From positions 17,576 through 81,575 of the forward strand of contig JALGZK010000008.1 of the NCBI GenBank assembly GCA_025774935.1: a stretch of 64,000 nucleotides of DNA, given 5' to 3'. The first letter of the stretch is position 1; every line of letters begins with the position of its first letter. Made by a program: the position numbers and the translations under genes. The stretch is from a bacterium. GTDB taxonomy: Bacteria; Joyebacterota; Joyebacteria; Joyebacterales; Joyebacteraceae. The notes under the pieces were generated by a model that saw only the letters and a list, made by a program, of their open reading frames with translations, was not told where the DNA came from and made no database searches. Shown one piece after another: positions 32,856 through 56,513 of this stretch.

Positions 32856-33023
32856 CTGAGGCGCCGACGAGGCGCGGAGAAACACATACATCCAGAGATG
32901 GCCGTCAGAGAACGGTCCCGTCGCGCGGGCGGACCGCGTCCCCTCTCGTGGGGATGCGTTCGTCCGCGTGAGTGTAGGAGGGGTCGCCCGGACGGTCGAC
33001 GGAAGGCAAAGGGGGCAGGTCTC

Positions 33024-35567
33024 ATGAGAGTGCTCGCGGCGATACTCACGGCGGCCGTGGCGACGGCGCTTCTTCTGCCGGGAACCGCGCAGGCGGACGT
33101 CCTCGGCAACACGTGGCTCCGGGGCGCGAGCTCGGTCGCGCTCAACGACGACGCGACGGCGATCTTCCTGAACCCGGCGGGGCTCGCTCTGTACGGGGAG
33201 ACCAGCGGCTACGGCTCGCTGTCGACGGCCGGCGGCAACAGCGAGGGCGCGGCGTTCGCGTTCAAGGGCGGCGGCTTCGGGTTCGCCTGGAACAGGCAGT
33301 ACATGTGGGAGCCGTACGGCGACTCGGAGAGCAACGGCTACCGTCTGACCGGCAAGATGGTCGACACCTACACGCTCGGGCTCGGGTTCGGAGAGGCCCG
33401 GAAGTGGGGACTCGGGTTCGACTACCGGTGGTTCCGCCAGCGATACGGAGACTACGCGAAGTCGGGCACGTGGGACGTCGGGTTCATGTACCGCCCGTTC
33501 AACGGCCTGTCGCTCGGGTTCGCCGCGAGGAACCTGTCCGAGCCGACGCTCCCGACCAGCATGACCGGTTCCGCCGGGGGCGTCCGCGGCTGCGAGTGCG
33601 AGACGACGACGTCCTACGTCTCAGGCATCGCCATCCGGCCCTTCGGGAACCGCCTCACGATCATGGCCGACATGAGCGTGCCCCGGGACAACGGGTTCGA
33701 CGACGCCGTCTACTCCGGCGGCATCGAGACCGAGATCATGAACGGCCTCGTCCTCAGGGCCTCGGTCCTCGACCACAAGATCGACGGCGAGCGCCAGGAC
33801 GACTGGAGCGTCGGGCTCTGGCTGAACGGTCTGCACTTCGGAGCCGGGTACAACAGCAAGAGCTTCACGGGCGCCACCGATCACATCAGCACCTACGAGG
33901 CGCTCGTCACGGCCGAGCGCATGCGAACCGTCATCAAGCCCACGGGCCAGATCGCGGAGATCAAGATCGCAGGCCAGCTCGCCGACGTCGCTCCTGGATG
34001 GAGTTTCTTCGGTGAGCCGAGGAGCAGCGCTCAGCGCATCGTCAGGAACATCAGGACGGCTGCCAACGAGAGCGGGGTGGAGTGCATCGTCGTCAGGATC
34101 GGGGACGTCGGGCGCCCGTTCCTCGGAGGACCCTCGGGACTCATCCAGGACATCCGCGATGAGCTCGAGTGGGCCCGCGACGTCAAGGGGAAGAAGATCG
34201 TCGCGTACTTCGAGTACTTCGTGGGCACGCAGGAGTACTACCTCGCCACCGTCGCCGATCAGATCGTCCTGAACCCGATCTCGGGACTCGAGGGTATCGG
34301 GAACTACGTGAACGTCCAGCGGTTCACCGAGTCGACCGGGAAGCTCGGGATCGACTGGGACTTCATGTCCGCGGGGAAGTACAAGAGCACCTTCCACTCG
34401 ATAGGGGCGGGTCCGCTGACCGACGAGCAGCGCGAGGAGGTCCAGTCGCTCGTCGACGCGAACTACGCGGTCGTCCTCTCGGGGCTCACCGAGGGACGGG
34501 GCATGAGCCTCACGGAGGCCGCCGGACTGAGCGACGGCCGCATGCTCACCGCGCCACAGGCGCTGGAGGCCGGGCTCGTCGACCGGCTGGGGCACTACGA
34601 GGACGCCAAGACCGCGGCGAGGGAGCTCATAGGCGGGGAGATCCCCGACGATCCCGAGAAGATCGACGTCGTCGACGTCGGGAAGTGGAAGCACAAGACG
34701 TACGACTGGAACTACGGCCCGGTGGTCGCGGTGATCGGCGCCTACGGCAGCATCCACACTGGCAAGGGCGGGACCGATCCGATGTCCGGCGACCAGTCGA
34801 TCGGCTCCCAGACGATGGTCAAGACGCTCCGGCGCGCGCGGAAGGACTCGCGCGTCAAGGCCGTGATCTTCAGGGTCGACAGCGGCGGGGGCGGCGGTCT
34901 CGCGACCGACGAGATCCGACGGGAGACGAAGAAGCTCGCCGAGAAGAAGCCGTTCATCGTCTCCATGGCAGACGTCGCCGGTTCGGGCGGCTACGGAATC
35001 TCCGTCGAGGGCGACAGGATCTTCGCCCAGCCGCCGACGATCACGGGGAGCATCGGCGTCGTCGCGATGAAGCCGATCCTCGAGGAGCTCTACAACAAGA
35101 TCGACGCGACGAGCGAGACCTTCAAGCGCGGCGAGCACTCGGACCAGTGGTCACTCATGCGGGGAATGACGGAGGAAGAGCTCGAGATGGCGCGCGAGGT
35201 CATCGACTGGTTCTACGAGGACTTCCTCAAGAGCGTCGCCGAGGGTCGGGGCATGGAGGTGGACGAGCTTCGCGAGCTCGCGGAGGGCAGGGTCTACACC
35301 GGCACCCAGGCGCTCGAGGTCGGTCTCATCGACGAGCTCGGCGGGCTCTCGGCCGCGATCGACTACGCCTGCGAGACGATCGACGTCGAGAGGGAGAAGG
35401 CGGCGATCGTCTTCTACAGGAAGAAGAGCTCCTTCTGCGACATGATGATGTCTCAGGCAACGAGAACTCTGGGCCTGCACCGCTTTATCAGCATCGACGA
35501 GGGCGGGCTCGAGGACCTCTACCAGCTGGAGATGACGAACGACGTGCTGGACGCTCTGGTGGAGTAG
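33024..35567 (+). CDS. sppA: Signal peptide peptidase SppA (tandem S49 domains) with ~330-aa beta-barrel-like N-terminal extension
   Basis: I trimmed the start to ATG 33024, giving the signal MRVLAAILTAAVATALLLPGTAQA. The C-terminal two-thirds carry two ClpP/S49 modules (SAGKYKS..., GSGGYGIS...). The N-terminal region begins ...ALNDDATAIFLNPAGLA, which resembles FadL/PorV-type barrels. Confidence 0.8.
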   Translation: MRVLAAILTAAVATALLLPGTAQADVLGNTWLRGASSVALNDDATAIFLNPAGLALYGETSGYGSLSTAGGNSEGAAFAFKGGGFGFAWNRQYMWEPYGDSESNGYRLTGKMVDTYTLGLGFGEARKWGLGFDYRWFRQRYGDYAKSGTWDVGFMYRPFNGLSLGFAARNLSEPTLPTSMTGSAGGVRGCECETTTSYVSGIAIRPFGNRLTIMADMSVPRDNGFDDAVYSGGIETEIMNGLVLRASVLDHKIDGERQDDWSVGLWLNGLHFGAGYNSKSFTGATDHISTYEALVTAERMRTVIKPTGQIAEIKIAGQLADVAPGWSFFGEPRSSAQRIVRNIRTAANESGVECIVVRIGDVGRPFLGGPSGLIQDIRDELEWARDVKGKKIVAYFEYFVGTQEYYLATVADQIVLNPISGLEGIGNYVNVQRFTESTGKLGIDWDFMSAGKYKSTFHSIGAGPLTDEQREEVQSLVDANYAVVLSGLTEGRGMSLTEAAGLSDGRMLTAPQALEAGLVDRLGHYEDAKTAARELIGGEIPDDPEKIDVVDVGKWKHKTYDWNYGPVVAVIGAYGSIHTGKGGTDPMSGDQSIGSQTMVKTLRRARKDSRVKAVIFRVDSGGGGGLATDEIRRETKKLAEKKPFIVSMADVAGSGGYGISVEGDRIFAQPPTITGSIGVVAMKPILEELYNKIDATSETFKRGEHSDQWSLMRGMTEEELEMAREVIDWFYEDFLKSVAEGRGMEVDELRELAEGRVYTGTQALEVGLIDELGGLSAAIDYACETIDVEREKAAIVFYRKKSSFCDMMMSQATRTLGLHRFISIDEGGLEDLYQLEMTNDVLDALVE

Positions 35568-37580: not shown

Positions 37581-38513
37581 ATGGAGACCGACAGCCCTCA
37601 TCCCGATCCGTATGTCCCCGAGAGGAACGAACCGCTCGTCGCGGGCGTGAGCAACAAGATCGGCTCCGTCCTCGTCGTCGGCTCCGGCATCTCCGGCATG
37701 CAGGCGGCGCTGGATCTCGCCGATGGCGGCTACTACGTCTACCTTCTCGACAGCGAGCCCGCGATCGGCGGCCTCATGTCGAAGCTCGACAAGACCTTCC
37801 CCACCAACGACTGCGCGATGTGCGTCATGAGCCCCAAGCTCGTGGACTGCGGTCGCCACCTCAACATCGAGCTCGTCACCTACGCTGATGTGAAGAACAT
37901 CGACGGCGTTCCCGGCAACTACAACGTCGAGATCGTCCGGAAGGCGAAGTCGGTCGACGAGGAGAAGTGCACCGGGTGCGGTGACTGCGTGACGGGCTGC
38001 CCGTCGCGGTACGTGGTCCGTCCCCCCGCCGAGGGCGCCCTCTACGAGCCGGAGACCACGGCGGACGAGAGAGATTTCATCGACCGGCTCCTCCGTGAGG
38101 AGGAGGACGTCGAGGGCAACCTCCTCTCGGTCCTCCAGGACGTGAGCGAGTACTCCCGCTACCTTCCCGAGCACGTCCTCAAGTACCTCTCGGACAAGAC
38201 CGGGATCCCCCTGGCGAGGATGATCTCGGTCGCGACGTTCTACGACGCGTTCTCGCTGGAGCCCAGGGGCGAGCACACGATCTCGGTCTGCATGGGAACC
38301 GCATGTCACGTGAAGGGCTCGGGCCTCCTCCAGTCGAGGCTCGAGGACATCCTCCAGATCCAGAGCGGCGAGACCACGGCCGATGGCAAGTTCACACTCC
38401 AGACCGTGAGGTGCATCGGCTGCTGCGCTCTCGCGCCGGCCGTCCGCATCGACGAAGAGACCTTCGGGTTCGTGATGGTGCGCGGGCTCGAGAAGATACT
38501 CAACAGGTTCTAG
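37581..38513 (+). CDS. Fusion protein: HdrA N-terminal FAD-binding fragment + NuoE-like thioredoxin-fold [2Fe-2S] domain
   Basis: Residues ~27-150 align by eye to HdrA (49354) residues ~143-265: VLVVGSGISGMQAALDLA..., TFPTNDCAMCVMSPK and CTGCGDCVTGCP. The C-terminal half has the NuoE/HoxE pattern (VCMGTACHVKG...CIGCCALAP). Confidence 0.85.
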   Translation: METDSPHPDPYVPERNEPLVAGVSNKIGSVLVVGSGISGMQAALDLADGGYYVYLLDSEPAIGGLMSKLDKTFPTNDCAMCVMSPKLVDCGRHLNIELVTYADVKNIDGVPGNYNVEIVRKAKSVDEEKCTGCGDCVTGCPSRYVVRPPAEGALYEPETTADERDFIDRLLREEEDVEGNLLSVLQDVSEYSRYLPEHVLKYLSDKTGIPLARMISVATFYDAFSLEPRGEHTISVCMGTACHVKGSGLLQSRLEDILQIQSGETTADGKFTLQTVRCIGCCALAPAVRIDEETFGFVMVRGLEKILNRF

Positions 38514-38516
38514 CGC

Positions 38517-40424
38517 ATGGCACGCATCAACACACAGGCGGAGTTCGAGCGCGTCGCGAGGGAGGCCGCGGAGCGGTACTGGGGCCGAGGGCTCACGATC
38601 CGGATCGGCATGGCCTCGTGCGGGCTCGCGGCGGGGGCGGGCGCCCTCTACGACGTTGCCGCCGAGCGCGTGAAGGCGAACGGGAACGGTCTCGCCCTGA
38701 CGAGGCTGGGATGCCGGGGAAGCTGCGTCACCGAGCCGATGGTCGACGTGGTCTCCCCGGACTTCCACCTGACCTTCGGGAACGTCACGAAGGCTGGGCT
38801 CGAGGCCATCATGGACGCCGCGGTGGCCGACGACTTCAGTTCGTTCGAGGACGCGGACGCCGTCTGGCAGGAGCGCGAGGAGCTCCGAACCGACGGGACG
38901 GTCTACCGCACCCGGCGAGGCACGCCGTCGCGAATCCCGGACATATCGGAAGTCCCTTTCTACACGCCTCAGCGGAAGATCATCACTCGGAACTGCGGCC
39001 TCATCGACCCCTTCAGCATCGAAGAGGCCCTGGCGAGGGACGGCTACGCCGCGCTCGTCAAGGTGCTCACGGAGAACGACCCGGCGGGTGTCATCAAGAC
39101 CGTGACCGACTCGGGCCTCAGGGGACGAGGCGGCGCCGGGTTCCCGACGGGCCGGAAGTGGGCGTTCGCGAGAGAGGCGGCCGGGGACGAGAAATACGTC
39201 TTCGTGAACGCGGACGAGGGCGACCCCGGTGCGTTCATGGACCGGTCGGTCCTCGAGAGCGATCCCCACGCCGTCCTCGAGGGCCTGGCCATCGGCGCGT
39301 TCGCCGTCGGGGCCTCCAAGGGCATCATCTACGTCAGGGCCGAGTACCCGCTCGCGGTGCAGACCCTGAGGAACGCGATCGTCCAGGCCCGCGAGTACGG
39401 GTTCCTGGGAGAGAACATCCTCGGCTCGGACTTCAGCTTCGACGTCTCGCTCCGCATCGGAGCGGGCGCGTTCGTCTGCGGCGAGGAGACCGCGCTCATC
39501 GCCTCCGCCGAGGGCAGGGTCGGAGAGCCGAGGCCGCGTCCCCCCTACCCCGCGCAGTGCGGGTACAAGGGAGCGCCGACGGTCATCAACAACGTGAAGA
39601 CCTGGTCGGCCGTCGCTCCGATCATCCTGAACGGGGCGGAGTGGTTCGCCGAGGTCGGCTCGGAGAACAGCAAGGGCACGGCTGTCTTCTGCGTCACGGG
39701 CACGATCAAGAACACGGGGCTGGTCGAGGTCCCGATGGGCATGAGCCTGAACGACATCATCCACGACATCGGAGGAGGACCCGAGCGCGAGGGGGCCGAG
39801 CTCAAGGCCGTGCAGACCGGCGGGCCGTCCGGCGGCTGCCTGCCGAAGGAACAGTTCGACCTCAGGGTCGACTACGAGCAGCTCACCGAGGCCGGGTCGA
39901 TGATGGGCTCGGGCGGGATGATCGTCGTCGACGACAGAACGTGCATGGTCAACCTCGCGAAGTTCTTCCTGAACTTCACGATGGACGAGTCGTGCGGGAA
40001 GTGCACGCCGTGTCGGGAGGGAACGCGGAGGATGTACGACCTCCTTGAGAAGATCACGTCGGGGAAAGGCACGGAGGAGGACGTCAGGCTCCTCGAGGAG
40101 CTCGCGGTCTACGTGAAGGACACGTCGCTCTGCGGTCTCGGGGCGACGGCGCCCAACCCCGTGCTCTCGACGCTGAGGTACTTCCAAGACGAGTACGACG
40201 CGCACATCAAGGAGCACCGGTGCCCCGCCGGGGAGTGCGAGGCCCTGATCAGCTTCCACGTGGTCCCCGACAAGTGCACGGTCTGCGGGGCGTGCGCGAA
40301 GGTCTGTCCGGTGAACGCGGTCCTCGAGGCCGGCGAGGCTCCCCCGACGATCGAGCAGGACGCGTGCACCAGGTGCCGCACGTGCTTCGAGGTGTGTCCT
40401 TCGGACGCCATCCGAATCGACTAG
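38517..40424 (+). CDS. NuoF-like NAD(P)H-binding flavoprotein with N-terminal thioredoxin-like domain and C-terminal 2x[4Fe-4S] ferredoxin domain
   Basis: It has the GLRGRGGAGFPTGRKW and ADEGDPGAF motifs, the N3 cluster motif ESCGKCTPCREG, and C-terminal CTVCGACAKVCP / CTRCRTCFEVCP. The architecture resembles the beta subunits of bifurcating hydrogenases and formate dehydrogenases. Confidence 0.9.
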   Translation: MARINTQAEFERVAREAAERYWGRGLTIRIGMASCGLAAGAGALYDVAAERVKANGNGLALTRLGCRGSCVTEPMVDVVSPDFHLTFGNVTKAGLEAIMDAAVADDFSSFEDADAVWQEREELRTDGTVYRTRRGTPSRIPDISEVPFYTPQRKIITRNCGLIDPFSIEEALARDGYAALVKVLTENDPAGVIKTVTDSGLRGRGGAGFPTGRKWAFAREAAGDEKYVFVNADEGDPGAFMDRSVLESDPHAVLEGLAIGAFAVGASKGIIYVRAEYPLAVQTLRNAIVQAREYGFLGENILGSDFSFDVSLRIGAGAFVCGEETALIASAEGRVGEPRPRPPYPAQCGYKGAPTVINNVKTWSAVAPIILNGAEWFAEVGSENSKGTAVFCVTGTIKNTGLVEVPMGMSLNDIIHDIGGGPEREGAELKAVQTGGPSGGCLPKEQFDLRVDYEQLTEAGSMMGSGGMIVVDDRTCMVNLAKFFLNFTMDESCGKCTPCREGTRRMYDLLEKITSGKGTEEDVRLLEELAVYVKDTSLCGLGATAPNPVLSTLRYFQDEYDAHIKEHRCPAGECEALISFHVVPDKCTVCGACAKVCPVNAVLEAGEAPPTIEQDACTRCRTCFEVCPSDAIRID

Positions 40425-40442
40425 CAGGAGCGACCGAGCGAC

Positions 40443-43400
40443 GTGAAGGAACACGAAGAAACCAGATGCTCAGAGCATGACGTGTGCGTGAACGCGGTGC
40501 GGATCACGCTCGACGGCGTGCCCATGGAGGTGGAGCTCGGGACGACGATCCTCGCGGCGGCCACGTCGGCCGGCGTGACGATCCCCACGCTCTGCCACTA
40601 CGGCGGGCTCGAGCCGGCGGGCGCCTGCCGCATCTGCGTCGTGGAGCTCAAGACCGAGCGGGGCAGCAGGCTCGTGCCGGCGTGCCACTACGCCATCGAG
40701 GCCCCCGCCGACATCTCCACGAGCTCTGAGCGCGTCGTCTCGTCGAGGAAGATGACGATCGAGCTCCTCCTCGCCCGCTGCCCGGAAGTGCCGGCACTCC
40801 AGGAGCTCGCCGCGGAGTACGGCGTCGAGACCACGCGCCTCCCGTCGGACGACGACGACTGCATTCTCTGCGGGCTCTGCGTGCGGACCTGCCGCGACCT
40901 CATGGACACCGAGGCGCTCTCGATGGTCGGGCGCGGGCACGGCCGCCGGGTCGCCCCGCCGTACGACAAGAAGTCGCTCGTCTGCATGAGCTGCGGCGCC
41001 TGCGCGTTCGTCTGTCCGACGAACAAGATCAAGATCGCCGATCTGTACGCCGGCAGGACCAGCGAGAACCTCTCGACCTACGACGAGAGGCTCGTTCCCG
41101 TCGGGAACATCCGCCTGAACTACTCGCAGCAGATCCCGAAGGTCCCGGTGATCGACCGCGAGAACTGCGTCCACTTCGTGACAGGCGCGTGCGGCGCGTG
41201 CGAGAAGATCTGCAACGTCGGCGCGATCGACTACGACCAGGAGGACCGCGAGGAGACCCTGAACGTCGGCGCGGTAATCGTGACGCCGGGGTACGACTCG
41301 TACGACGCGTCCCAGAAGGGCGCGCTCGGCTACGGGCGCTACGAGAACGTCCTCACGAACCTCCAGTTCGAGCGGATCCTGAGCGCATCGGGTCCGTGCG
41401 AGGGCGAGATCCGGCGCCCCTCGGACGGCGCGCATCCGAGGAAGGTCGCGTTCCTCCAGTGCGTCGGCTCGCGCGACACGAACGAGGAAGGGAAGCCGTA
41501 CTGCTCGTCGATCTGCTGCATGGCCTCCATCAAGGAGGCGGTCATCGCGCGCGAGCACGACTCGAACGTCGAGCCCACCATCTTCTACATAGACATGCGA
41601 ACGCAGGGCAAGGAGTTCGAGCGGTACTTCGAGGGCGCCAGGAACGACCACGGCATCGTCTTCAAGAGGAGCAGCGTAGCGAAGCTCTACGAGAAGCCGG
41701 CCACGAAGAACCTCGTGGTCCGGCACGTGGACGAGGAGACCGGCGAGATCGCTGAGGAGGAGTTCGACCTCGTCGTCCTCGCCGCTGGCCTCGTCGCGCA
41801 CGAGAGCAACGCCGGTCTCGCCGAGAGCCTCAACATCACGCTCAACGAGCACGGGTTCTGCGAGGGACACACGTACCAGGTGCCGGGAAGCGGTGGTGGG
41901 AACGGCGGTGGGAACGGCGACGGGACGGCCGGGCAGGGCGCCGGGGCGACCGCCGGGTCGGCCGCCGGCATCTTCACGGGCGGCGCCTTCACCGAGCCCC
42001 GATACATCCCGGAGGCCGTCGTCGAGGGGAGCTGCGCCGCCTCGGGCGCCGCGAGGCTACTCGCGGAGGCGCGCGGGACGCTCGCCAGGAAGAAGAAGTA
42101 CCCGAAGCAGCTCGACGTCGCGAAGGCCGTGCCGCGCATCGGCGTGTTCATCTGCCGCTGCGGGATCAACATCGCGGGAACGGTCAACGTCCCGGACGTG
42201 GTCGCCTACTCCGCGACCCTCGGGAACGTCGTCCACGCGTCCGAGTTCGTCTACTCGTGCTCGCAGGACTCGCTCGAGGTCATCAAGGAGACCGTCGCCG
42301 AGCACAAGCTGAACCGCGTGGTGGTCGCGTCGTGCACGCCGAGGACTCACGAGTACCTCTTCGCCGACACCATCCGCGAAGCGGGTCTCAACCGCTACTA
42401 CTTCGAGCTCGCTTCGATCCGGGAACACTGCTCCTGGGTCCACATGCAGGAGCCCGAGCTGGCGACGCAGAAGGCGAAGGAACTCGTGGAGATGATGGTG
42501 AGCAAGGTCCGGGGCGCGCGCCCCGTGAGCCTCGAATACTCGCCGGTCGTCCACCGCGGGCTCGTCATCGGGGGCGGCGTGAGCGGGATGAACGCCGCGC
42601 TGAGCCTCGCCGAGCAGGGCTACGAGGTCGACCTCGTCGAGAAGGAAGGGAAGCTCGGAGGTAACTACCTCAAGCACCGACGCCCGGTCTGGAACCTCTA
42701 CTCCCCGACATACCTCGAGGACCTCGAGGCCGCCGTGCGGGCCAACTCGAACGTCACGCTCCACCTGAACTCGGAGGTGATCCTCTTCTCCGGGGTCGTC
42801 GGGAACTTCTACGCCGAGGTCTGCAACCGCGAGACGGGAGAGGAGCACGAGATTAGCTGCGGCGCGGCCGTCGTCGCGACCGGCGCCGTCGAACGCGAGC
42901 CCGTGGAGTACGGATACGGCACCGACGAGCGGATCATGACGCAGCTCGAGTTCGAGAGCCTGCTGGGCGGCGAGGACGAGCCCGCGCCGGACATCAAGAG
43001 CGTCGCCATGATCCAGTGCGTCGGCTCCCGCGAGGAACCGAACCTCTACTGCAGCAGGATCTGCTGCACGCAGGCCATCCAGAACGCGATGGAGCTCAAG
43101 CGGAGGAACCCCGACGCCACCGTCCACATCATCTACCGCGACATCAGGACGTACGGGGTCCGCGAGGAGCTCTACCGCGAAGCCAGGGAGGCAGGCGTCC
43201 TCTTTCTGCGGTACGACGTCGACCGGAAGCCGGAGGTGACGACAGGCCCGGACGGTCTCAAGCTCAAGGTCTACGACCGGATATCCCGGCGCGAGGTCGA
43301 GCTCGGCCCGGACGCGGTCGTCCTCTCCACCGGCCTCGCCCCGAGACCCGACAGCGAGGAGCTCAGCAAGGTCCTCCGCGTACCGCTCACGCGGGACGGG

Positions 43401-43832
43401 TTCTTCCTCGAGGCGCACGCGAAGATCCGCCCCGTCGACTTCACGTCCGAGGGGCTCTTCCTCGCGGGTCTCGCCCACTCGCCTCGCTTCACGAACGAGT
43501 GTGTGACGCAGAGCCTCGGCGCCTCGGCGCGGGCCGCGACGATCCTCTCGAAGGACAAGGTCGAGTCGAAGGCCGAGATCGTCGAGGTCAACCTCGCCCG
43601 CTGCTCAGGCTGTGCGCTCTGCGTCGGGATGTGCCCGTACGAGGCGAGGCAGCTCGACCCCGAGAGCGGGAAGGCCACCGTGAACGACATCCTGTGCCAG
43701 GGCTGCGGCGCCTGCGCGGGCATCTGCCCGAACAAGGCGACCGTCCAGCACCTGTACAGACAGACACAGATCATGCACATGCTTGAACCCGTCGGCGCGC
43801 AGGCGGGAACGGAGGCGGAGGCGTCGGAGTAA
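40443..43832 (+). CDS. Giant fusion: NuoG-N-terminal-like [2Fe-2S]/[4Fe-4S] module + C-terminal remainder of a split HdrA + a second HdrA/QmoB-like unit
   Basis: 1129 aa. The N-terminus reads ITLDGVPMEVELGTTILAAA...CHY...GACRICVVE, followed by CILCGLCVRTC and CMSCGACAFVCP. Residues ~235-540 align to HdrA residues ~280-570 (QCVGSRD, CSSICCM). Residues ~560-1110 form another HdrA-like unit (GVFICRCGINIAG, GGGVSGMNAAL, QCVGSRE, CSRICC, CSGCALCVGMCP, CQGCGACAGICP). GTG start; the exact start is uncertain. Confidence 0.85.
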   Translation: MKEHEETRCSEHDVCVNAVRITLDGVPMEVELGTTILAAATSAGVTIPTLCHYGGLEPAGACRICVVELKTERGSRLVPACHYAIEAPADISTSSERVVSSRKMTIELLLARCPEVPALQELAAEYGVETTRLPSDDDDCILCGLCVRTCRDLMDTEALSMVGRGHGRRVAPPYDKKSLVCMSCGACAFVCPTNKIKIADLYAGRTSENLSTYDERLVPVGNIRLNYSQQIPKVPVIDRENCVHFVTGACGACEKICNVGAIDYDQEDREETLNVGAVIVTPGYDSYDASQKGALGYGRYENVLTNLQFERILSASGPCEGEIRRPSDGAHPRKVAFLQCVGSRDTNEEGKPYCSSICCMASIKEAVIAREHDSNVEPTIFYIDMRTQGKEFERYFEGARNDHGIVFKRSSVAKLYEKPATKNLVVRHVDEETGEIAEEEFDLVVLAAGLVAHESNAGLAESLNITLNEHGFCEGHTYQVPGSGGGNGGGNGDGTAGQGAGATAGSAAGIFTGGAFTEPRYIPEAVVEGSCAASGAARLLAEARGTLARKKKYPKQLDVAKAVPRIGVFICRCGINIAGTVNVPDVVAYSATLGNVVHASEFVYSCSQDSLEVIKETVAEHKLNRVVVASCTPRTHEYLFADTIREAGLNRYYFELASIREHCSWVHMQEPELATQKAKELVEMMVSKVRGARPVSLEYSPVVHRGLVIGGGVSGMNAALSLAEQGYEVDLVEKEGKLGGNYLKHRRPVWNLYSPTYLEDLEAAVRANSNVTLHLNSEVILFSGVVGNFYAEVCNRETGEEHEISCGAAVVATGAVEREPVEYGYGTDERIMTQLEFESLLGGEDEPAPDIKSVAMIQCVGSREEPNLYCSRICCTQAIQNAMELKRRNPDATVHIIYRDIRTYGVREELYREAREAGVLFLRYDVDRKPEVTTGPDGLKLKVYDRISRREVELGPDAVVLSTGLAPRPDSEELSKVLRVPLTRDGFFLEAHAKIRPVDFTSEGLFLAGLAHSPRFTNECVTQSLGASARAATILSKDKVESKAEIVEVNLARCSGCALCVGMCPYEARQLDPESGKATVNDILCQGCGACAGICPNKATVQHLYRQTQIMHMLEPVGAQAGTEAEASE

Positions 43833-43866
43833 CGCGGCGCCACTCCCCTCCCCGAAAGGAGCAGAG

Positions 43867-44352
43867 GTGGAAGCGACGGTAGAAGGGAAGACACCGACGG
43901 AAGACGGCACCCCGACCACGAGCCAGGGCGCAGGGCCCTTCGAGCCCAAGATCATTGCGTTCGTGTGCAACTGGTGCACGTACGCCGCCGCGGACCTGGC
44001 GGGGACCTCGAGGATCCAGTACCCGCCGAACGTGAAGATCGTGCGGCTCATGTGCAGCGGCGCGATCGATCCGATCTACGTGCTCCGCGCGATCACGGGC
44101 GGGTTCGACGGGGTCCTGATCGGCGGATGCCATCCCGGCGACTGCCACTACCAGACTGGGAACTACAAGGCGCGCAGGCGCGTCACGATCCTGAAGGAGA
44201 TCCTGAAGTCGGTCGGGTACGACGAAGAGAGGGTGTGGCTCCGCTGGATCTCCGCGAGCGAGGGAGGCGCGTTCGCCGCCACGGTGAGCGAGATGGTCGA
44301 GGCACTCAAGTCGCACGGCCCCAACGTTCTCACGACCAACTGGAACAAGTAG
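43867..44352 (+). CDS. mvhD: MvhD-like (methyl-viologen-reducing hydrogenase delta subunit family) [2Fe-2S] protein
   Basis: I chose the GTG start at 43867 after AAAGGAG. It has the blocks IIAFVCNWCTYAAADLAG, VRLMCSG and GGCHPGDCHY. Confidence 0.85.
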   Translation: MEATVEGKTPTEDGTPTTSQGAGPFEPKIIAFVCNWCTYAAADLAGTSRIQYPPNVKIVRLMCSGAIDPIYVLRAITGGFDGVLIGGCHPGDCHYQTGNYKARRRVTILKEILKSVGYDEERVWLRWISASEGGAFAATVSEMVEALKSHGPNVLTTNWNK

Positions 44353-44358
44353 AGACCA

Positions 44359-45480
44359 ATGAAGAAGAGACTGAAGCTGGATTCGAACGGGCACGGGATG
44401 GAGGAGGCGCTGGGGCGCCTCGCGAGGCTCATGATCTCGACGGGAGGGGTGGACCGGGTCTTCATCCCGCAGCACGACGAGACGGGCGAGGCGGTCTACG
44501 CGACGCTCGTCGCCGACGTGGACGCCCTCAAGGACCCCGCGCCGCTCGTGCCGTACATCAACGGCAACAAGGGACGGGAGGCGGGTCTCTCCACGCCGAA
44601 GAACGGCGAGAACAAGACCGCCGTCTTCGTGCGTCCGTGCGAGGCCCGGGCGATCATCGAGCTCTCGAAGCTCATGCAGGCGCATCGGGAGAGCATGCTC
44701 CTGATCACGTCCGACTGCCCGGGGACCCTCACGCTCGAGGACTACAAGCGCCTCCGCGAGGAGCACCCGGACCACCGCGAGGAGGTCGCGGCGTTCTACG
44801 CGCCGTTCCACGGAGGAGAGCGCCTCGAAGGACACGAGGTCCGCGAGTGCTGCACGTTCTGCGAGTCGCTCGCGCATCCCATGAGCGACATCCGCCTTCT
44901 CCTCGTCGGAGCGCCGGAAGGAACGGTCGTCGTCGAGGCCACGTCGGAGGCCGGCGAGCGGGTGCTCTCGAAGCTCGAGATGGAGGAAGCGGCGGAGGTC
45001 GACGAAGCCGTGCGGGAGAAGTTCACCGAGGGTCAGAAGTCGCGCCACGCCGAGATGGAGGCACACTGGGACGAGGTGGTCCACTCGGTCGAGGACTTCA
45101 TGCACCTCGTCCAGCACTGCCGCAGGTGCTACAACTGCCGGGCCGAGTGCCCGATCTGCTACTGCCGCGAGTGCGTGTTCCAGACGGCCACGTTCGAGGT
45201 GACGCCCGACGCGTTCGGGAGGCGAGCCGACCAGTACGGCGTCGTCAAGATGCCGCCCGACACGCTGGTCTTCCACCTGACGAGGATGAACCACATGGTG
45301 ACGTCCTGCGTCTCCTGCGGTCAGTGCACCGAGGCCTGCCCTCAGAAGATCCCCGTGGGGAAGATCTTCTCCGCGGTGGGCAGGAGGGTTCAGGACGTCT
45401 TCGACTACAGGGCCGGCGCCGATACGGCCGACGAACTGCCGCATGCAGTCTTCCGTGAGGACGAGCTCGAGCCGCGCTAG
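44359..45480 (+). CDS. Iron-sulfur protein, FrhB/FdhB-like N-terminal region + 2x[4Fe-4S] dicluster domain
   Basis: 373 aa with VFVRPCEARAIIEL (FrhB-like) and the cluster motifs CRRCYNCRAECPIC and CVSCGQCTEACP. The family assignment is tentative. Confidence 0.65.
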   Translation: MKKRLKLDSNGHGMEEALGRLARLMISTGGVDRVFIPQHDETGEAVYATLVADVDALKDPAPLVPYINGNKGREAGLSTPKNGENKTAVFVRPCEARAIIELSKLMQAHRESMLLITSDCPGTLTLEDYKRLREEHPDHREEVAAFYAPFHGGERLEGHEVRECCTFCESLAHPMSDIRLLLVGAPEGTVVVEATSEAGERVLSKLEMEEAAEVDEAVREKFTEGQKSRHAEMEAHWDEVVHSVEDFMHLVQHCRRCYNCRAECPICYCRECVFQTATFEVTPDAFGRRADQYGVVKMPPDTLVFHLTRMNHMVTSCVSCGQCTEACPQKIPVGKIFSAVGRRVQDVFDYRAGADTADELPHAVFREDELEPR

Positions 45481-45509
45481 GCGCGCCGGGCTTCTCCTGG
45501 AGAATCGCG

Positions 45510-46229
45510 ATGGCAACAGAACTGAAAGAGAAGGACGTCACAGAGGCCGGCGACGACGGCATGGTCAGCATCTTCGTGATGGGCAAGGAGTACCGGGTGC
45601 CCGACGCGCTGACCATCATGAAGGCGACCGAGTACGCGGGCTACCGGTTCATCCGCGGCTGCGGGTGCCGGGGCGGCGCGTGCGGGGCGTGCGCGACCGT
45701 CTACCGGACGGGCGACGACTACCGGATCAAGGTGGGGCTCGCGTGCCAGACGCTGATCGAGCCGGGGATGCACCTCACGCAGATCCCGTTCTATCCGGCG
45801 AACAAGGCGATCTACGACCTCGATCTGGCCGAGCCGACGGTCGAAGAGGTACTCAAGCACTACCCCGAGATCGCCAGGTGCCTCTGCTGCGAGGTCTGCA
45901 CGCGGGCGTGCCCGCAGGACCTCGAGGTCATGTACTACATCCAAGCGGCGCTCCGGGGAGACGTGAAGGAAGTGTCCCGGCTCTCGTTCGAGTGCATCAT
46001 GTGCGGGCTCTGTGTGTCTCGGTGTCCCGCCGAGCTCATGCACTACAACGTGGCCATCCTCTGCCGGAGGCTCTACGCGAGGTACGGCATGAAGAGGGCC
46101 GAGCACGTCGCTGAGCGCGTCCGCGAGATCGAGGAAGGGAAATACGACTCGGAACTCGACGAGCTGGTCGGGATGGACGAGAAGGACCTCGTGAAGGCCT
46201 ACGAGGGCCGTGACTTCGAGGAAGCATAA
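45510..46229 (+). CDS. Succinate dehydrogenase/fumarate reductase iron-sulfur subunit-like protein
   Basis: 239 aa with an N-terminal 2Fe-2S-like GCGCRGGACGACA, followed by CLCCEVCTRACP and CIMCGLCVSRCP. Confidence 0.75.
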   Translation: MATELKEKDVTEAGDDGMVSIFVMGKEYRVPDALTIMKATEYAGYRFIRGCGCRGGACGACATVYRTGDDYRIKVGLACQTLIEPGMHLTQIPFYPANKAIYDLDLAEPTVEEVLKHYPEIARCLCCEVCTRACPQDLEVMYYIQAALRGDVKEVSRLSFECIMCGLCVSRCPAELMHYNVAILCRRLYARYGMKRAEHVAERVREIEEGKYDSELDELVGMDEKDLVKAYEGRDFEEA

Positions 46230-46240
46230 GGAGACGTGAC

Positions 46241-47869
46241 GTGCCGTATTCCAGGGAGATGATGGAGTCGGTCAGGAAGGTCGTGGAGACGCGCCCGGCC
46301 AGGATCGCCGAGGCGAAGGAGGGGAAGCACTTCCCCCGTCTCGGCCAGGACGACATCGAGGCCATCCTGAAGAAGTACCACCCGGACTACAGGGACGGGA
46401 CGAAGCGGGAGGTCAGGGTCGGGGCCGGGAAGGGCACGATCGTCCCGAACGAGCTCGCGGATCTCCTCGAGGCGCGACCGATGATCCGGCCCGAGGACGT
46501 GGAGCTCGGCACCGTCGACGTCGACACCGACGTCCTCGTGATCGGAGGCGGTGGGGCGGGCGCCGCGGCGGCTCTCACGGCGGCCGCGGAGGGGGTGAAC
46601 GTCACGGTCGCCACGAAGCTCAGGCTCGGGGACGCGAACACGATGATGGCCGAGGGAGGCATCCAGGCGGCCGACAAGGCGAGCGACTCGCCGGTGCTGC
46701 ACTTCCTCGACATCCTCGGCGGAGGGCACTTCACGAACGACCGCGAGCTGGTACGCACGCTCGTCAGCGACGCGCCGTCGATCATCGGGTGGCTCGAGGA
46801 TCTCGGCGTCCTCTTCGACAAGGAGGAAGAGGACGGCACGATGCAGACGCTGCACGGCGGCGGGACGTCGCGCAAGCGCATGCACTCGGCGGGCGACATG
46901 ACCGGAGCCGAGATCATGCGGACGCTCCGGGACGAGGTCAAGAACCACCCGGACGAGATCCGCGTGCTCGAGTTCTCCCCGGCGGTCGAGCTCATCCTGG
47001 GCGACGCAGGCGGAGTGGCGGGAGCGGTGCTCTACAACATGGAGACCGAGCAGTACATCGTCGTGCGCGCGAAGACCACCATCATCGCGACAGGCGGGTT
47101 CGGCAGGCTCCACATCCAGGGATTCCCCACGACGAACCACTACGGCGCCACGGCCGACGGCATCGTCCTCGCCTACCGCGCGGGAGCGGCGCTCAAGTTC
47201 CTGGAGGCGACGCAGTTCCATCCCACGGGAGCGGTCTTCCCGGAACAGAACGTCGGCCTCCTCATCACGGAGAAGGTGCGGGGCGCCGGCGCGCAGGTCG
47301 TCAACGTCGAGGGTGAGCAGTTCGTCTATCCGCTCGAGACGCGCGACGTGGAGTCGGCGGCGATCATCCGCGAGTGCGAGGAACGCGGGAAGGGCGTCGT
47401 GACGCCCACGGGGCGCAAGGGGTGCTGGCTCGACTCTCCGATGGTCGAGGTCCTGCGAGGCGCGGGGACCATGCAGAACGATTTCCCCGCCAAGTACAGG
47501 CAGTTCATGCGGCACGACATCGACATCAGCAAGCTCCCGATGCTCATCTACCCGACGCTCCACTACCAGAACGGCGGCGTCGCGATCAACGCGGAAGCCG
47601 AGGCCGAGAGGGAGAACCTCTACCTCGCCGGAGAGGTCACCGGGGGCATCCACGGCACCAACCGGCTGATGGGGAACTCGCTCCTGGACATCCTGGTCTA
47701 CGGACGCCGCGCCGGACTGAACGCGGCAAGGAAGAGCAAGGAGACGCAGCCGGGCAGGCTGACGCTCGAGCATCTGAGCGAGTACGCAGCCGAGCTCGAG
47801 AAGGCGGGGATCGGGAGCGAGGCAGTCTCTCCCATGCTCCTCCCCGACTACGCCGGCAAGCTCGGATAG
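46241..47869 (+). CDS. FAD-dependent flavoprotein of the SdhA/FrdA/NadB/AprA superfamily
   Basis: GTG start, 542 aa. It has the dinucleotide fold DVLVIGGGGAGAAAAL plus the blocks AEGGIQAA, TQFHPTG and GTNRLMGNSLLD. Confidence 0.85.
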   Translation: MPYSREMMESVRKVVETRPARIAEAKEGKHFPRLGQDDIEAILKKYHPDYRDGTKREVRVGAGKGTIVPNELADLLEARPMIRPEDVELGTVDVDTDVLVIGGGGAGAAAALTAAAEGVNVTVATKLRLGDANTMMAEGGIQAADKASDSPVLHFLDILGGGHFTNDRELVRTLVSDAPSIIGWLEDLGVLFDKEEEDGTMQTLHGGGTSRKRMHSAGDMTGAEIMRTLRDEVKNHPDEIRVLEFSPAVELILGDAGGVAGAVLYNMETEQYIVVRAKTTIIATGGFGRLHIQGFPTTNHYGATADGIVLAYRAGAALKFLEATQFHPTGAVFPEQNVGLLITEKVRGAGAQVVNVEGEQFVYPLETRDVESAAIIRECEERGKGVVTPTGRKGCWLDSPMVEVLRGAGTMQNDFPAKYRQFMRHDIDISKLPMLIYPTLHYQNGGVAINAEAEAERENLYLAGEVTGGIHGTNRLMGNSLLDILVYGRRAGLNAARKSKETQPGRLTLEHLSEYAAELEKAGIGSEAVSPMLLPDYAGKLG

Positions 47870-47905
47870 CCGAAGGCCATCCGGCGAGCGGCCGAGAGGA
47901 ATGCG

Positions 47906-48319
47906 ATGAAACTGGTTCTTGAACGCGGGGACTTCACGAGGACCTTCCACGAGAGGCTGAAGGAGCTCTCGGGGCAGGACCTCTTCACCTGCTATCAGTG
48001 CGGGAAGTGCTCGGCAGGCTGTCCGAGCGCCGCCGTGATGGACGCTCCCCCGCACGCCATTGTCCGGCTCGCGTGGTTCGGCCAGGAGGATGACCTCATG
48101 AAGCTCAACTCCTACTGGCTCTGCGCGGCGTGCCTGACGTGCGACCTCCGTTGCCCCAAGGGCATCGACATATCGCGGATCATGGAGGCGCTGCGCGTGA
48201 TGTTCCTGCGCCCGAGAGAAGAGCCCGACATGGTGCCGCCCGAGTCCCTTCCGAAAGACATGCTCTCGAGGATCCCGCAGCAGGCGCTCGTGGCGGGAAT
48301 GAGGAAGTACACGAAATGA
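47906..48319 (+). CDS. hdrC: Heterodisulfide reductase subunit C-like (copy 1)
   Basis: 137 aa with CYQCGKCSAGCP and CAACLTCDLRCP. Its stop overlaps the hdrB start (ATGA). Confidence 0.85.
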   Translation: MKLVLERGDFTRTFHERLKELSGQDLFTCYQCGKCSAGCPSAAVMDAPPHAIVRLAWFGQEDDLMKLNSYWLCAACLTCDLRCPKGIDISRIMEALRVMFLRPREEPDMVPPESLPKDMLSRIPQQALVAGMRKYTK

Positions 48320-49329
48320 GGACCTTCTACTACCCCGGCTGCACACTGCCAGACAAGGCGCGCGACTTCGACACGTCCGCGCGCACGACCTGCGACCTCC
48401 TCGGCATCGAGCTCGAGGAGATGGAGAGGTGGGTCTGCTGCGGCTCCGCGTTCAAGCTCGACCGCACGAACGTGATGCAGCACCTGGCGCCGATCAGGAA
48501 CCTCGCGGAGGTGCACAAGGAGGGCGGGAGGCTCATGACCCTGTGCGTCTTCTGCTACAACTCCCTGAAGCGGGCGAACTACGCGTTCAACGCCGCGTCC
48601 GACCGACAGGAGATCCTGAACGACTTCATCGAGTCCGACTACGACGGCAAGGTCCAGGTGGTCCACCTCCTGGAGATGCTCAAGGACGACGTGAGCTTCG
48701 AGGCGCTCGCCGAGCAGGTGAAGCGTCCGCTTACGGGTCTCAAGGTCGCGGTGTTCTACGGCTGCCTCCTCATGCGCCCGTTCAAAGAAGTCGGGTTCGA
48801 GGATCCGGAGAACCCCTCCGTCCTCGAGAGGCTGTTCGAGGCACTCGGCGCCGAGGTCGTCCCGTACCCCCACCACCTCGAGTGCTGCGGGTCGTACCTC
48901 TCGCTCAAAGACCCCGAGCACACGACAACGTGCGTCACGAAGATCCTCGGGTCGGCCGTCGCCGAAGGCGCCAACGCGATCGTCACGAGCTGCCCGATGT
49001 GCAACTTCAACTTCGAGTTCTTCGGCGGAGACCTCGTCTCGAGAAACCAGATCCACACGTTCTACTTCACGGAACTCCTGGCGCTCGCGCTGGGCGCCGA
49101 CAAGGAGCTGTGCGGGCTCGAGCAGCACGAGACCGACGTCGATGGCTTCCTCCAGGACCTCTTCGCCGGACGCGCGGCAACCGAGCCAGTGGCCCCAGAG
49201 CCGGCGACGGAGGAACCGCCCGCCGAGGAGCCCGAGGCCGCCGCGCCCGAGGCGCCCGAGCGACCGGCGGCGAAAGAAGTGCCGGCTGAGAAGGAAGGAG
49301 TCGCCGGGGAGCGCGATCCGAGCGAGTGA
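48316..49329 (+). CDS. hdrB: Heterodisulfide reductase subunit B-like (copy 1) with Pro/Glu/Ala-rich C-terminal tail
   Basis: I trimmed the start to ATG 48316. It has two CCG domains (VCCGSAF, LECCGSYL) and the N-terminal YYPGCTL. The tail reads AATEPVAPEPATEEPPAEEPEAAAPEAPERPAAKE. Confidence 0.85.
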   Translation: MRTFYYPGCTLPDKARDFDTSARTTCDLLGIELEEMERWVCCGSAFKLDRTNVMQHLAPIRNLAEVHKEGGRLMTLCVFCYNSLKRANYAFNAASDRQEILNDFIESDYDGKVQVVHLLEMLKDDVSFEALAEQVKRPLTGLKVAVFYGCLLMRPFKEVGFEDPENPSVLERLFEALGAEVVPYPHHLECCGSYLSLKDPEHTTTCVTKILGSAVAEGANAIVTSCPMCNFNFEFFGGDLVSRNQIHTFYFTELLALALGADKELCGLEQHETDVDGFLQDLFAGRAATEPVAPEPATEEPPAEEPEAAAPEAPERPAAKEVPAEKEGVAGERDPSE

Positions 49330-49353
49330 CGCCGCCCCTGGCGCGCTGAACGG

Positions 49354-51309: not shown

Positions 51310-51351
51310 CGAGGTGAGGTTCCGAGAGACGACATCGGACGGGAAGGCTCG

Positions 51352-55572: not shown

Positions 55573-55585
55573 CCTGCAGCACCTC

Positions 55586-55685
55586 CTGGTGGTTTCCCGG
55601 CGGGGACCTGGCTCGGCCCCCACCCCGCTCGTGTAGAGCACATCATCTGAACCGTCGCCATTGTAGCATCGAGGTCGGCCGTCTA
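55586..55685 (-). pseudogene. Remnant of an apbE 3' end left by a tandem duplication
   Basis: The sequence is collinear with 56514-56615, the end of apbE. The encoded MLYTSGVGAEPGP matches the ApbE C-terminus VLHTSGMGTELKSP. The stop TAG (cta at 56514-56516) is CAG here. Confidence 0.55.
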
Positions 55686-55707
55686 CTCGGTGAATCTAAG
55701 AACATCA

Positions 55708-55733
55708 GCGGCTCCGCCGGAAGGGGGAGCCGC
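55708..55733 (-). terminator. Hairpin downstream of FMN-binding paralogue B
   Basis: An 8-bp stem GCGGCTCC/GGAGCCGC. It is paralogous to the hairpin at 54797-54818. Confidence 0.35.
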
Positions 55734-55750
55734 CGTGTGTCACGGACCGG

Positions 55751-56500: not shown

Positions 56501-56513
56501 CCTGCTGCACCTC

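Follow-up and report, generated by a model that had tools for sequence, protein, structure and literature searches.

The window analysed here is a stretch of 64,000 nucleotides of contig JALGZK010000008.1, which comes from a bacterium of the family Joyebacteraceae (assembly GCA_025774935.1). Three consecutive genes in it, called P1, P2 and P3 below, combine parts of the heterodisulfide reductase flavoprotein HdrA with proteins related to NuoE, NuoF and NuoG. An earlier annotation of the window, made from its letters alone (the original prediction), had proposed that an hdrA gene is split within its inserted ferredoxin domain and that a nuoE-nuoF-nuoG(N) cassette occupies the break. It gave the three genes the same coordinates as the list of open reading frames (ORFs). 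The features of the three genes are as follows.

37581-38513, forward strand: P1, N-terminal half of HdrA module I and a NuoE/BfuC [2Fe-2S] domain, 310 residues
38517-40424, forward strand: P2, NuoF of the electron-bifurcating Bfu/HydB type, 635 residues
40443-43832, forward strand: P3, N-terminal part of NuoG, C-terminal half of HdrA module I and HdrA module II, 1129 residues
40443-41057, forward strand: N-terminal part of P3, NuoG-N/BfuA-like, with a [2Fe-2S] site and an 8-Cys 2x[4Fe-4S] domain
41076-42107, forward strand: middle part of P3, C-terminal half of HdrA module I
41886-41969, forward strand: Gly-rich low-complexity stretch, P3 residues 482-509, inside module I
42129-43832, forward strand: C-terminal part of P3, HdrA module II

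The start codon of P3 may be at 40488 instead, the database gene call being 15 residues shorter.

The HdrA domain divided between P1 and P3

Residues 15-143 of P1 aligned with residues 129-257 of a full-length HdrA encoded downstream in the window (49354-51309) with 47% identity (E = 6e-40), and residues 29-142 aligned with residues 145-258 of the solved HdrA of M. thermolithotrophicus (5odc_A). This part of P1 carries the Rossmann motif for flavin adenine dinucleotide (FAD; GSGISG, residues 34-39), a DCxxC motif (DCAMC, residues 77-81) and the first Cys motif of the inserted ferredoxin domain (CxxCxxCxxxCP), CTGCGDCVTGCP, at residues 130-141 (positions 37968-38003). Past this motif P1 has no HdrA sequence. 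It switches to a NuoE/HoxE-type [2Fe-2S] domain (residues ~160-310; Pfam 2Fe-2S_thioredx, residues 169-309, E = 1.7e-41), the closest solved relatives of which are HydC subunits. The original prediction had described exactly this succession, an HdrA FAD segment with the first cluster motif and then NuoE. In an alignment of 14 family members, G34, G36, G39, D77, C78, C81, C130, C133, C136 and C140 of the HdrA part were invariant, as were the NuoE cysteines C237, C242, C278 and C282.

HdrA homology restarts in P3 at about residue 213 (DERLVPVGNIRLNY), which corresponds to residue ~262 of the downstream HdrA (EMNLVERKAIYVNS), and extends to about residue 525; the match to residues 276-547 of that HdrA has 37% identity (E = 3e-65). 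The original prediction was right that HdrA resumes before the second ferredoxin motif, although the actual restart lies ~14 residues upstream of the point it named. The second motif is formed by C242, C250, C253 and C257. As had also been predicted, P3 continues from there through QCVGSRD, CSSICCM and the rest of the FAD domain: we found QFER (with E310), QCVGSRD...CSSICCM (residues 339-360), K364 and a C-terminal FAD motif, GIFTGGAF...PRYIPEAV (residues ~509-525). In the family alignments C250, C253, C257, E310, R311, C340, C354, C358, C359 and K364 were invariant, and C242 was conserved in at least 90% of the rows. E310 and K364 are the equivalents of E356 and K409 of M. thermolithotrophicus HdrA, were present in 25 of 25 family members, and belong to a pair proposed as a marker of bifurcating HdrAs (PMC12054007).

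The two pieces are complementary. On the NCBIfam HdrA2 model, P1 covers positions 139-256 and P3 positions 260-514, that is, the matches are adjacent with zero overlap; on 5odc_A they cover residues 145-258 on the P1 side and 246-499 on the P3 side. These alignments to HdrA, which the original prediction had recommended as a check, confirmed the break. Module I in P3 has no GxGxxG motif and no Rossmann beta-alpha-beta unit of its own, so that the motif pair of the FAD domain, GxGxxG and the C-terminal FAD motif, is present in P1 and P3 jointly, and the inserted 2x[4Fe-4S] domain is complete only in the pair of P1 (motif 1) and P3 (motif 2). In a 2x[4Fe-4S] ferredoxin fold, each cluster draws ligands from both Cys motifs. 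Since the motifs are divided between P1 and P3, neither chain can form the FAD site or either cluster of the inserted domain by itself. As judged from these motifs, one FAD domain and one 2x[4Fe-4S] domain arise only if P1, P2 and P3 assemble. Module I is divided over two genes, and the usual HdrA arrangement with all domains on one polypeptide is absent here.

P3 contains a second HdrA module, which had been overlooked. Module II (residues 565-1118) aligned with residues 3-237 and 315-646 of the downstream HdrA and with residues 4-236 and 487-647 of 5odc_A. It has an N-terminal 4-Cys domain (RIGVFICRCG..., SCTPRTHE, HCSWVH), a Rossmann motif of its own (GGGVSG, residues 710-715), and so both FAD motifs on one chain, the sequence QCVGSRE...YCSRICC and a C-terminal 2x[4Fe-4S] domain; in the alignment to full-length HdrA the inserted ferredoxin domain was absent. 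Module I has neither the N-terminal 4-Cys domain nor the C-terminal ferredoxin domain. The original statement that the split copy lacks the 4-Cys domain is consequently true of module I and not of the protein, in which module II supplies one. The motif CxGxRD(x6-8)CSxxCC is present in both modules of P3 and kept family-wide. At the position of the conserved Glu/Lys pair, module II of the window P3 keeps the Glu and has Gln880 (positions 43080-43082) in place of the Lys409 equivalent. This Lys is kept in module II of most family members, with further deviations at loci L005, L019, L020, L023, L030 and L033.

The predicted order HdrA(N)-NuoE, NuoF, NuoG(N)-HdrA(C) held, and with the second module the architecture as read from the sequences is HdrA-I(N)-NuoE / NuoF / NuoG(N)-HdrA-I(C)-HdrA-II. 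Because of module II, the unit is an HdrL-like tandem HdrA (HdrL is compared below) and not a single HdrA. The Gly-rich insert noted earlier is real and specific to this lineage: ~22 of its residues form an insertion without counterpart in 24 of 24 other aligned family members, and its predicted structure had a predicted local distance difference test score (pLDDT) below 50.

We also modelled a chimera of P1 (residues 1-146) and P3 (residues 212-560) with AlphaFold, using an alignment of 30 rows that contained unpaired halves and the two unsplit HdrAs of the window. The model had a pLDDT of 74 and a predicted template modelling score of 0.75. It aligned with solved HdrA chains over 466-479 columns, with template modelling scores of 0.74-0.75 (query-normalised) and as high as 0.85 (target-normalised). 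The model thus agrees with a single HdrA fold. None of the solved chains had an HdrA-NuoE or NuoG-HdrA fusion in a structure-database sequence comparison of P1 and P3. The locus is a clean example of one protein domain rebuilt from two genes with a third between them.

We then compared the inserted part with Bfu enzymes. P2 comprises a flavin mononucleotide (FMN)/NADH site, an SLBB domain, the NuoF [4Fe-4S] region and a C-terminal 2x[4Fe-4S] ferredoxin domain, preceded by an N-terminal extension of ~160 residues (Pfam Complex1_51K, 2.2e-44; NADH_4Fe-4S, 1e-34; two Fer4 matches). Among solved structures it is closest to BfuB/HydB subunits from bifurcating enzymes, led by 7t2r_B with 702 bits and including 9n5u_B, 7q4v_B and 8a6t_B; over the BfuB/HydB-type subunits of 7t2r, 9n5u, 9bov, 7q4v, 8oh5, 8a6t, 7p5h and 9mqx the scores were ~584-702 bits. 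The score to complex I NuoF was ~380 bits, against ~700 bits for BfuB subunits. The BfuB alignments reach residues 632-634 and take in the C-terminal ferredoxin domain, so that the whole BfuB core set (NuoF-type FMN/NADH site, SLBB, [4Fe-4S] and C-terminal 2x[4Fe-4S]) was found in P2. At the other end, P2 aligned with NfnB (9n5u_B) from residue 28 onward; its N-terminus gave no Pfam 2Fe-2S_thioredx match and has three evident Cys in residues 1-80.

The BfuC equivalent, a NuoE-like [2Fe-2S] protein, is present as the domain of P1 fused to HdrA(N). The BfuA N-terminus, [2Fe-2S] and [4Fe-4S] sites leading to a third-substrate module, was found in P3 residues 18-211: residues 18-95 match Fer2_4 (6.8e-16) and residues 136-211 form a NuoG-N-type 8-Cys domain with Pfam Fer4_16 and Fer4_21 matches, as expected from the original description of NuoG-N-like motifs at the start of the 1129-residue protein. 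The closest solved relative of this part is the NuoG-like protein 9mqx_A (E = 1.2e-42), and its Cys motifs are kept in 25 family members. The NuoG-like part of P3 has no motif for the His-ligated cluster (the region reads LLLARCPEV) and no molybdopterin-like domain, and NuoG homology stops at about residue 210. The third-substrate module of this BfuA-like protein is, by its predicted domains, HdrA itself. We conclude that the module in the HdrA break has the sequence hallmarks of a BfuABC core. The earlier idea of an NADH module built into HdrA by insertion was upheld as to the complementary halves and the cassette exactly in the break; the insert appears to be of the Bfu type (NADH and ferredoxin) and not simply an NADH dehydrogenase.

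Relatives of the cassette and the genes around it

The original prediction knew of no such architecture. It is not peculiar to the window genome; we found it widespread, in ~25 complete cassettes from at least 12 phyla. A protein search with P1 gave 5134 relatives, and the best 120 clusters (90% identity) were all ~290-330 residues long with FAD_oxidored and 2Fe-2S_thioredx domains. With P3, 5632 relatives were found; more than 110 of the best 120 had 1075-1130 residues and the Fer2_4 plus Pyr_redox layout, with 45-50% identity at 97% coverage. The closest relatives of the window proteins were 79-88% identical. By tblastn mapping, the fusion was located in ~30 loci and the complete order [HdrA(N)-NuoE]-NuoF-[NuoG(N)-HdrA(C)-HdrA2] in ~25; MvhD follows the cassette wherever the contig extends far enough. 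The carriers (~30 metagenome-assembled genomes) represent at least 12 phyla of bacteria and archaea. Species representatives with the full-length fusion belong to Cloacimonadota, Desulfatiglandales and other Desulfobacterota, Eubacteriales, Spirochaetota, Melioribacter, Acidobacteriota, Latescibacterota, Sedimentisphaerales, Fibrobacterota, Dehalococcoidia, Altiarchaeales and one uncultured archaeon; other searches added Thermoplasmata, Planctomycetota, TA06 and Chitinispirillaceae, and Chloroflexota are also among the taxa listed. Clustering at 50% identity shrank the family to a handful of representatives. The family is compact, strongly conserved and spread over phyla.

Hundreds of protein clusters have the architecture, and in databases the parts bear generic names ('NAD(P)H-dependent oxidoreductase subunit E', 'NADH:ubiquinone oxidoreductase subunit E', 'FAD-dependent oxidoreductase', 'heterodisulfide reductase subunit A'). 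For this reason, metabolic reconstructions of many uncultured anaerobes probably misread the cassette as stray NuoEFG and HdrA.

Several relatives are instructive about the break. Beside the split copies in L015 and L005 there are unsplit tandem paralogues, in which HdrA-I(N) continues without interruption into HdrA-I(C) and HdrA-II; the junction in L015 reads ...KCTSCGSCEAVCPVSLPNAFEYGLVKRKAIYKPFPQAIPNAYVIDKEGDGKHRGCVDCMRCVKEC..., and in these paralogues both HdrA-I pieces are linked by a loop of 18-30 residues. The presence of unsplit paralogues of the same tandem HdrA beside split copies fits an insertion into a once-continuous gene. In the unsplit copy of L005 (16694-18945), NDCAM is followed by a TGA in frame; it stands where DCxxC has its second Cys and is most simply read as selenocysteine. 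In L036, L049, L052, L059, L060, L067-L069, L072, L078 and L079, mostly from Desulfobacterota, the ORFs of unsplit tandem HdrAs start at about residue 81. From such starts ~80 residues in, we infer a selenocysteine-type interruption at these loci as well, where the ORF caller divides the genes.

In other relatives, the same pair of Cys motifs flanks a GltD/NfnB-like domain on a single chain of 1480-1690 residues (L029, L044, L047, L054, L082 and P0146). L029 is from Gemmatimonadota, L044 from the cultured Desulfotruncus arcticus DSM 17038, and L047, with a C-terminal MvhD fusion, from Hodarchaeota. All six have the tandem layout of module I without N-terminal domain followed by module II. The GltD-type protein P0146 shares 64% identity with the HdrA parts of P3; for other split P3s the identity is 45-50%. 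The GltD insertion point is found ~30 residues downstream of the NuoEFG break, which itself immediately follows the first motif. One further chain (L061, 8941-11160) has a polyferredoxin/NuoG-N-like insert of ~200 residues between HdrA-I(N) and HdrA-I(C) and neither NuoE nor NuoF; this chain could represent an intermediate or have arisen by deletion.

In a second subfamily (P0260-P0263), a type-I HdrA with N-terminal domain is split at the same point. Its arrangement in L083 (5973-16832) is HdrA, HdrA(N)-NuoE (418 residues), NuoF, NuoG(N)-HdrA(C) with a C-terminal ferredoxin (590 residues), MvhD and FlxC/B/A-like genes. These are followed by a second MvhD and HycI, and hyp maturation genes lie upstream. 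Considering the GltD, polyferredoxin and NuoEFG inserts together, the loop between the two inserted-ferredoxin motifs is a recurrent insertion point for redox modules. In a neighbour-joining tree of the module-I C-terminal halves, made to see whether the split arose once, split, unsplit and GltD-insert forms were intermixed; the tree is too weak to count events.

Two variations concern the NuoF gene. In L006 (10307-13399), L012 (7017-10088) and L026 (9810-12989), NuoF is C-terminally fused to a GltD/NfnB-like NAD(P)H domain (1020-1060 residues in total), which replaces the 2x[4Fe-4S] tail, and L025 has the same spacing. The complexes of L006, L012 and L026 would combine an FMN site in NuoF with an FAD site in GltD. 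In L004 (12033-15913) and L007 (12083-14905), five to seven ORFs stand between NuoF and the P3-type gene; by eye, one is CBS-like and others resemble DRTGG, histidine-kinase-like ATPase and PHP domains. Such regulatory blocks (DRTGG, ATPase, PHP) occur in some HydABC operons.

In the window, the cassette opens a cluster of 14 co-directional genes (37581-54760, ~17 kb) with spacers ranging from 42 nucleotides down to short overlaps. The genes downstream of P3 include:

43783-44352, forward strand: MvhD/FlpD [2Fe-2S] protein (Pfam FlpD, 4.1e-52)
44359-45480, forward strand: FrhB/FdhB-C-like protein with 2x[4Fe-4S], a FlxB/C-like iron-sulfur partner (Pfam FrhB_FdhB_C, 7.6e-09; Fer4_8)
45510-46229, forward strand: TfrB-like iron-sulfur protein with 2Fe-2S and 4Fe-4S and no CCG domains (NCBIfam TfrB, 6.7e-07)
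46241-47869, forward strand: TfrA-like fumarate-reductase/aspartate-oxidase flavoprotein (NCBIfam TfrA, 1e-96, below the family cut-off)
47906-48319, forward strand: HdrC, from domain scans
48316-49329, forward strand: HdrB, with CCG domains
49354-51309, forward strand: first full-length type-I HdrA (NCBIfam HdrA2, 4.5e-245 over residues 3-647)
51352-53298, forward strand: second full-length type-I HdrA, read from the ORF translation
53298-53900, forward strand: second HdrC-like gene, in the end part of the cluster
~53900-54760, forward strand: second HdrB-like gene, with CCG domains, the last gene of the co-directional cluster

The listed MvhD frame overlaps the end of P3, and its true start is therefore probably later. 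MvhD directly follows the P3-type gene in nearly all related loci, and an FrhB-like homologue follows MvhD in L001, L002, L012, L014, L015, L026, L030, L033 and L046. Many related loci have an HdrC homologue upstream of the cassette, with HdrB (CCG) beside it in L001 and L002; in L001 and L083, FlxC/B/A-like genes stand directly downstream of the cassette. With the two tandem HdrAs and the second HdrCB pair, the window cluster holds four HdrA FAD modules and two HdrBC sets. TfrAB-like genes were seen in none of the related loci mapped, and the pair is a lineage-specific addition to the operon. The TfrB- and TfrA-like genes, directly before hdrC-hdrB, resemble a thiol:fumarate reductase with the CCG half taken from HdrB. 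The cluster 37581-54760 contains no tungsten AOR-type BamB, no BamC and no HdrD-like BamD, and none of nuoA-D and nuoH-N; FlxA is absent from the window operon, and the Rex operator TGTGAN6TCACA had no match in the window with at most 1 mismatch.

Outside the cluster, an oxidoreductase with Fer2, FAD_binding_6 and NAD_binding_1 domains, which are FlxA/FNR-like, is encoded on the reverse strand at 62159-63253, distant from the hdr genes. Just past the cluster, two FMN_bind-domain proteins stand beside an ApbE flavin transferase (54838-57626, reverse strand). At 32898-35567 on the forward strand there is an 889-residue protein with two S49 (SppA) peptidase domains and an N-terminal region of ~300 residues that is weakly TraF_2-like (E = 1.7e-4).

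Proposed mechanism and alternatives

P1, P2 and P3 probably form one obligate assembly, an NADH/ferredoxin-linked Hdr-type complex that would be an HdrL analogue with a Bfu module in the place of GltD. A complete Bfu-type module (BfuC, BfuB with FMN, BfuA) would be spliced into the loop between the ferredoxin motifs. Electrons could pass from the FMN of P2 through the NuoF cluster and the [2Fe-2S] and two [4Fe-4S] clusters of the BfuA part to the rebuilt inserted ferredoxin domain and the FAD of module I, and from there to the HdrA cluster beside the flavin and then to HdrC/HdrB; through module II and MvhD, electrons might reach the iron-sulfur partner. Methanogen HdrA uses its inserted ferredoxin domain as the arm on which free ferredoxin is reduced; since this domain is the ferredoxin exit there, the Bfu core would replace free ferredoxin on that arm. 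Read most simply, the complex would take in NADH and reduced ferredoxin reversibly, or deliver NAD+ and ferredoxin, coupled at the HdrA flavin. The high-potential acceptor could be a disulfide on HdrB, with a further partner reached through MvhD; in the window, the TfrAB-like reductase is a candidate for an alternative high-potential partner, and the TfrB/TfrA-like genes of the operon hint at fumarate or a comparable compound as acceptor. The Bfu site and the HdrA flavin would be coupled in series, as proposed for BamGHI/BamE, and the conserved partners would be MvhD, the FrhB-like iron-sulfur protein and HdrBC.

Several points weigh against this proposal. The direction of electron flow, the substrates and the stoichiometry are all deduced from sequence. 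With three obvious Cys in the N-terminal domain of P2, the full Bfu cofactor set is not proven, and Gln in place of the flavin Lys in module II makes a second bifurcating flavin doubtful here. HdrBC is not adjacent to the cassette in every locus, and L001 and L083 also encode a FlxA-type NAD(P)H flavoprotein, which makes a second NADH entry hard to rationalise. As to the rebuilt domain, the chimera model is not an independent test, with unsplit HdrAs in its alignment and HdrA structures in the training of AlphaFold; its junction (residues 141-170) was modelled at low confidence, and a single-sequence AlphaFold run of the P1 plus P3 chimera reached a pLDDT of only 29.7.

The NuoE, NuoF and NuoG-N parts might instead be a plain, non-bifurcating NADH input in the style of Hox enzymes, NAD-dependent formate dehydrogenase or complex I. 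In that case the complex would act as an NADH:disulfide (or NADH:fumarate) reductase in which any bifurcation is confined to the HdrA flavin. NuoF homologues are indeed frequent in non-bifurcating enzymes (PMC5861303), GltD in HdrL is usually taken as a simple NAD(P)H entry (PMC12054007, PMC2702500), and Pfam does not recognise the three-Cys N-terminal domain of P2 as [2Fe-2S] thioredoxin-like. However, P2 retains the C-terminal 2x[4Fe-4S] domain and scores nearly twice as high to proven BfuB as to the NuoF of complex I or formate dehydrogenase, and the module is placed on the HdrA arm that carries the low-potential electron in methanogens, not at the MvhD/N-terminal-cluster entry. We therefore regard a plain NADH input as rather unlikely.

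The remaining alternatives question the rebuilt domain itself. An operon that interrupts a gene normally destroys it, and the HdrA remnants around a nuoEFG-like operon that landed in hdrA could be non-functional appendages, with the Gly-rich insert of module I as a sign of relaxed constraint. Yet both remnants are in frame and 45-55% identical across at least 12 phyla of both domains, their FAD and Fe-S ligands and the Glu/Lys pair are invariant across the family, and the Gly-rich insert is confined to the window lineage, in a low-confidence surface loop. Decay is already contradicted by this conservation, and we consider it most improbable. That the two HdrA-like pieces are independent, overlapping pyridine-nucleotide-disulfide oxidoreductase domains, the outcome against which the original prediction was to be checked, is just as hard to maintain: P3 does have a complete independent FAD domain in module II, but its module I lacks the Rossmann unit, P1 ends at the first ferredoxin motif, the HdrA matches abut without overlap, and the unsplit paralogues join the same two pieces through their 18-30-residue loop. 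An assembly or frameshift artefact, a general risk of metagenomic contigs, can practically be dismissed, because the same three-gene layout and junctions occur on contigs of unrelated genomes and samples and 87-88% identical copies exist on other contigs (P0002, P0139).

A wider proposal is possible, and we make it tentatively. The cassette may represent an unrecognised, widespread enzyme class in which a Bfu FMN/iron-sulfur site and an HdrA FAD are wired covalently in series through a two-chain ferredoxin domain, for tandem bifurcation or confurcation that would connect NADH and ferredoxin with a disulfide and one more partner. The HdrA loop would be a modular docking point that has been filled repeatedly (GltD, polyferredoxin, NuoEFG), in type-I as well as in tandem HdrAs.

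Comparison with known systems

The closest known arrangement is HdrL, an HdrA/glutamate-synthase fusion followed by mvhD in Desulfobacterium autotrophicum (PMC2702500). An NfnB/GltD insertion that breaks the inserted ferredoxin domain characterises type III HdrA (PMC9012536, for ANME-1 HdrA9-11; PMC12054007), and in Syntrophobacter an HdrABC/HdrL cluster with an FeS protein and MvhD (Sfum_0819-0824) is abundant in sulfidogenic growth (PMC5947623). Like the window unit, HdrL has an NAD(P)H flavoprotein module between the two inserted-ferredoxin Cys motifs, mvhD as the next gene, and hdrABC and an FeS protein nearby (in the window MvhD, the FrhB-like FeS protein, HdrCB and two HdrAs downstream). 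The insert of HdrL is GltD (FAD) on one chain, whereas that of the window is NuoE, NuoF and NuoG-N (FMN, Bfu type) in three genes; Pfam detected no GltD domain, the defining feature of HdrL, in P1, P2 or P3. We conclude that the window unit, by its predicted domains, is an HdrL-type tandem HdrA with a three-gene Bfu cassette as its NAD(P)H module.

Methanogen HdrABC-MvhAGD (5ODC), like related solved Hdr complexes, shares with module I the fold of FAD domain and inserted ferredoxin and the cofactor motifs, including the E356/K409 equivalents. Its HdrA is unsplit and a hydrogenase is present, whereas in the window HdrA is split, module II stands in tandem, there is no hydrogenase, and Bfu is on the ferredoxin arm. 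FlxABCD-HdrABC, known from sulfate reducers and other anaerobes (Ramos et al. 2015, as cited in PMC12054007 and PMC5947623), resembles the window unit as a soluble NADH-linked Hdr system with MvhD-like FlxD, FeS subunits and HdrABC. It differs in having an ordinary HdrA on one chain and in taking up NADH by way of FlxA, a small flavoprotein, and MvhD. The N-module of complex I comes with full NuoG and membrane-arm genes, neither of which is found here, the NuoG-like part ending at about residue 210.

The literature searched contained no description of an HdrA split by NuoEFG, and an earlier mention elsewhere is not excluded. The genome paper of Desulfotignum phosphitoxidans names 'nuoEFGmvhD' and 'nuoGEFmvhDhdrA' clusters and remarks on no split; the 'nuoEFGmvhD' clusters may be the same cassette read as plain NuoEFG.

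HdrA-type and Bfu-type enzymes are two of four known electron-bifurcating families (PMC9304861; a 2018 review, PMC5861303, likewise gives four flavoprotein groups). In Bfu enzymes, the BfuA arm exchanges electrons of ~-400 mV with NAD+ and ferredoxin (PMC9304861), and none of the Bfu types in the part of that paper available has BfuC and BfuA fused to HdrA halves. In class II benzoyl-CoA reductase (Bam), BamGHI (Bfu) is proposed to feed the HdrA-like BamE (PMC9304861). Bam and the window unit both combine a Bfu module, an HdrA-type module and MvhD, and the BfuA of the Bam-Bfu clade in that paper contains one [2Fe-2S] and two [4Fe-4S] clusters, like the window module. BamE and BamGHI are described as separate subunits, whereas in the window BfuC and BfuA are covalently fused to HdrA halves; Bam further has tungsten AOR (BamBC) and an HdrD-like protein, in place of which the window operon has HdrBC. 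For class II benzoyl-CoA reductase it is an open question how HdrA-type and Bfu-type sites might work in series. With Bfu fused into the ferredoxin arm of HdrA, the link between the two sites is fixed, and as a simpler object than the 1-MDa Bam complex the cassette should be better suited to cryo-electron microscopy and kinetics. Specialists would find the architecture surprising, and it makes the study of two bifurcation sites in series tractable.

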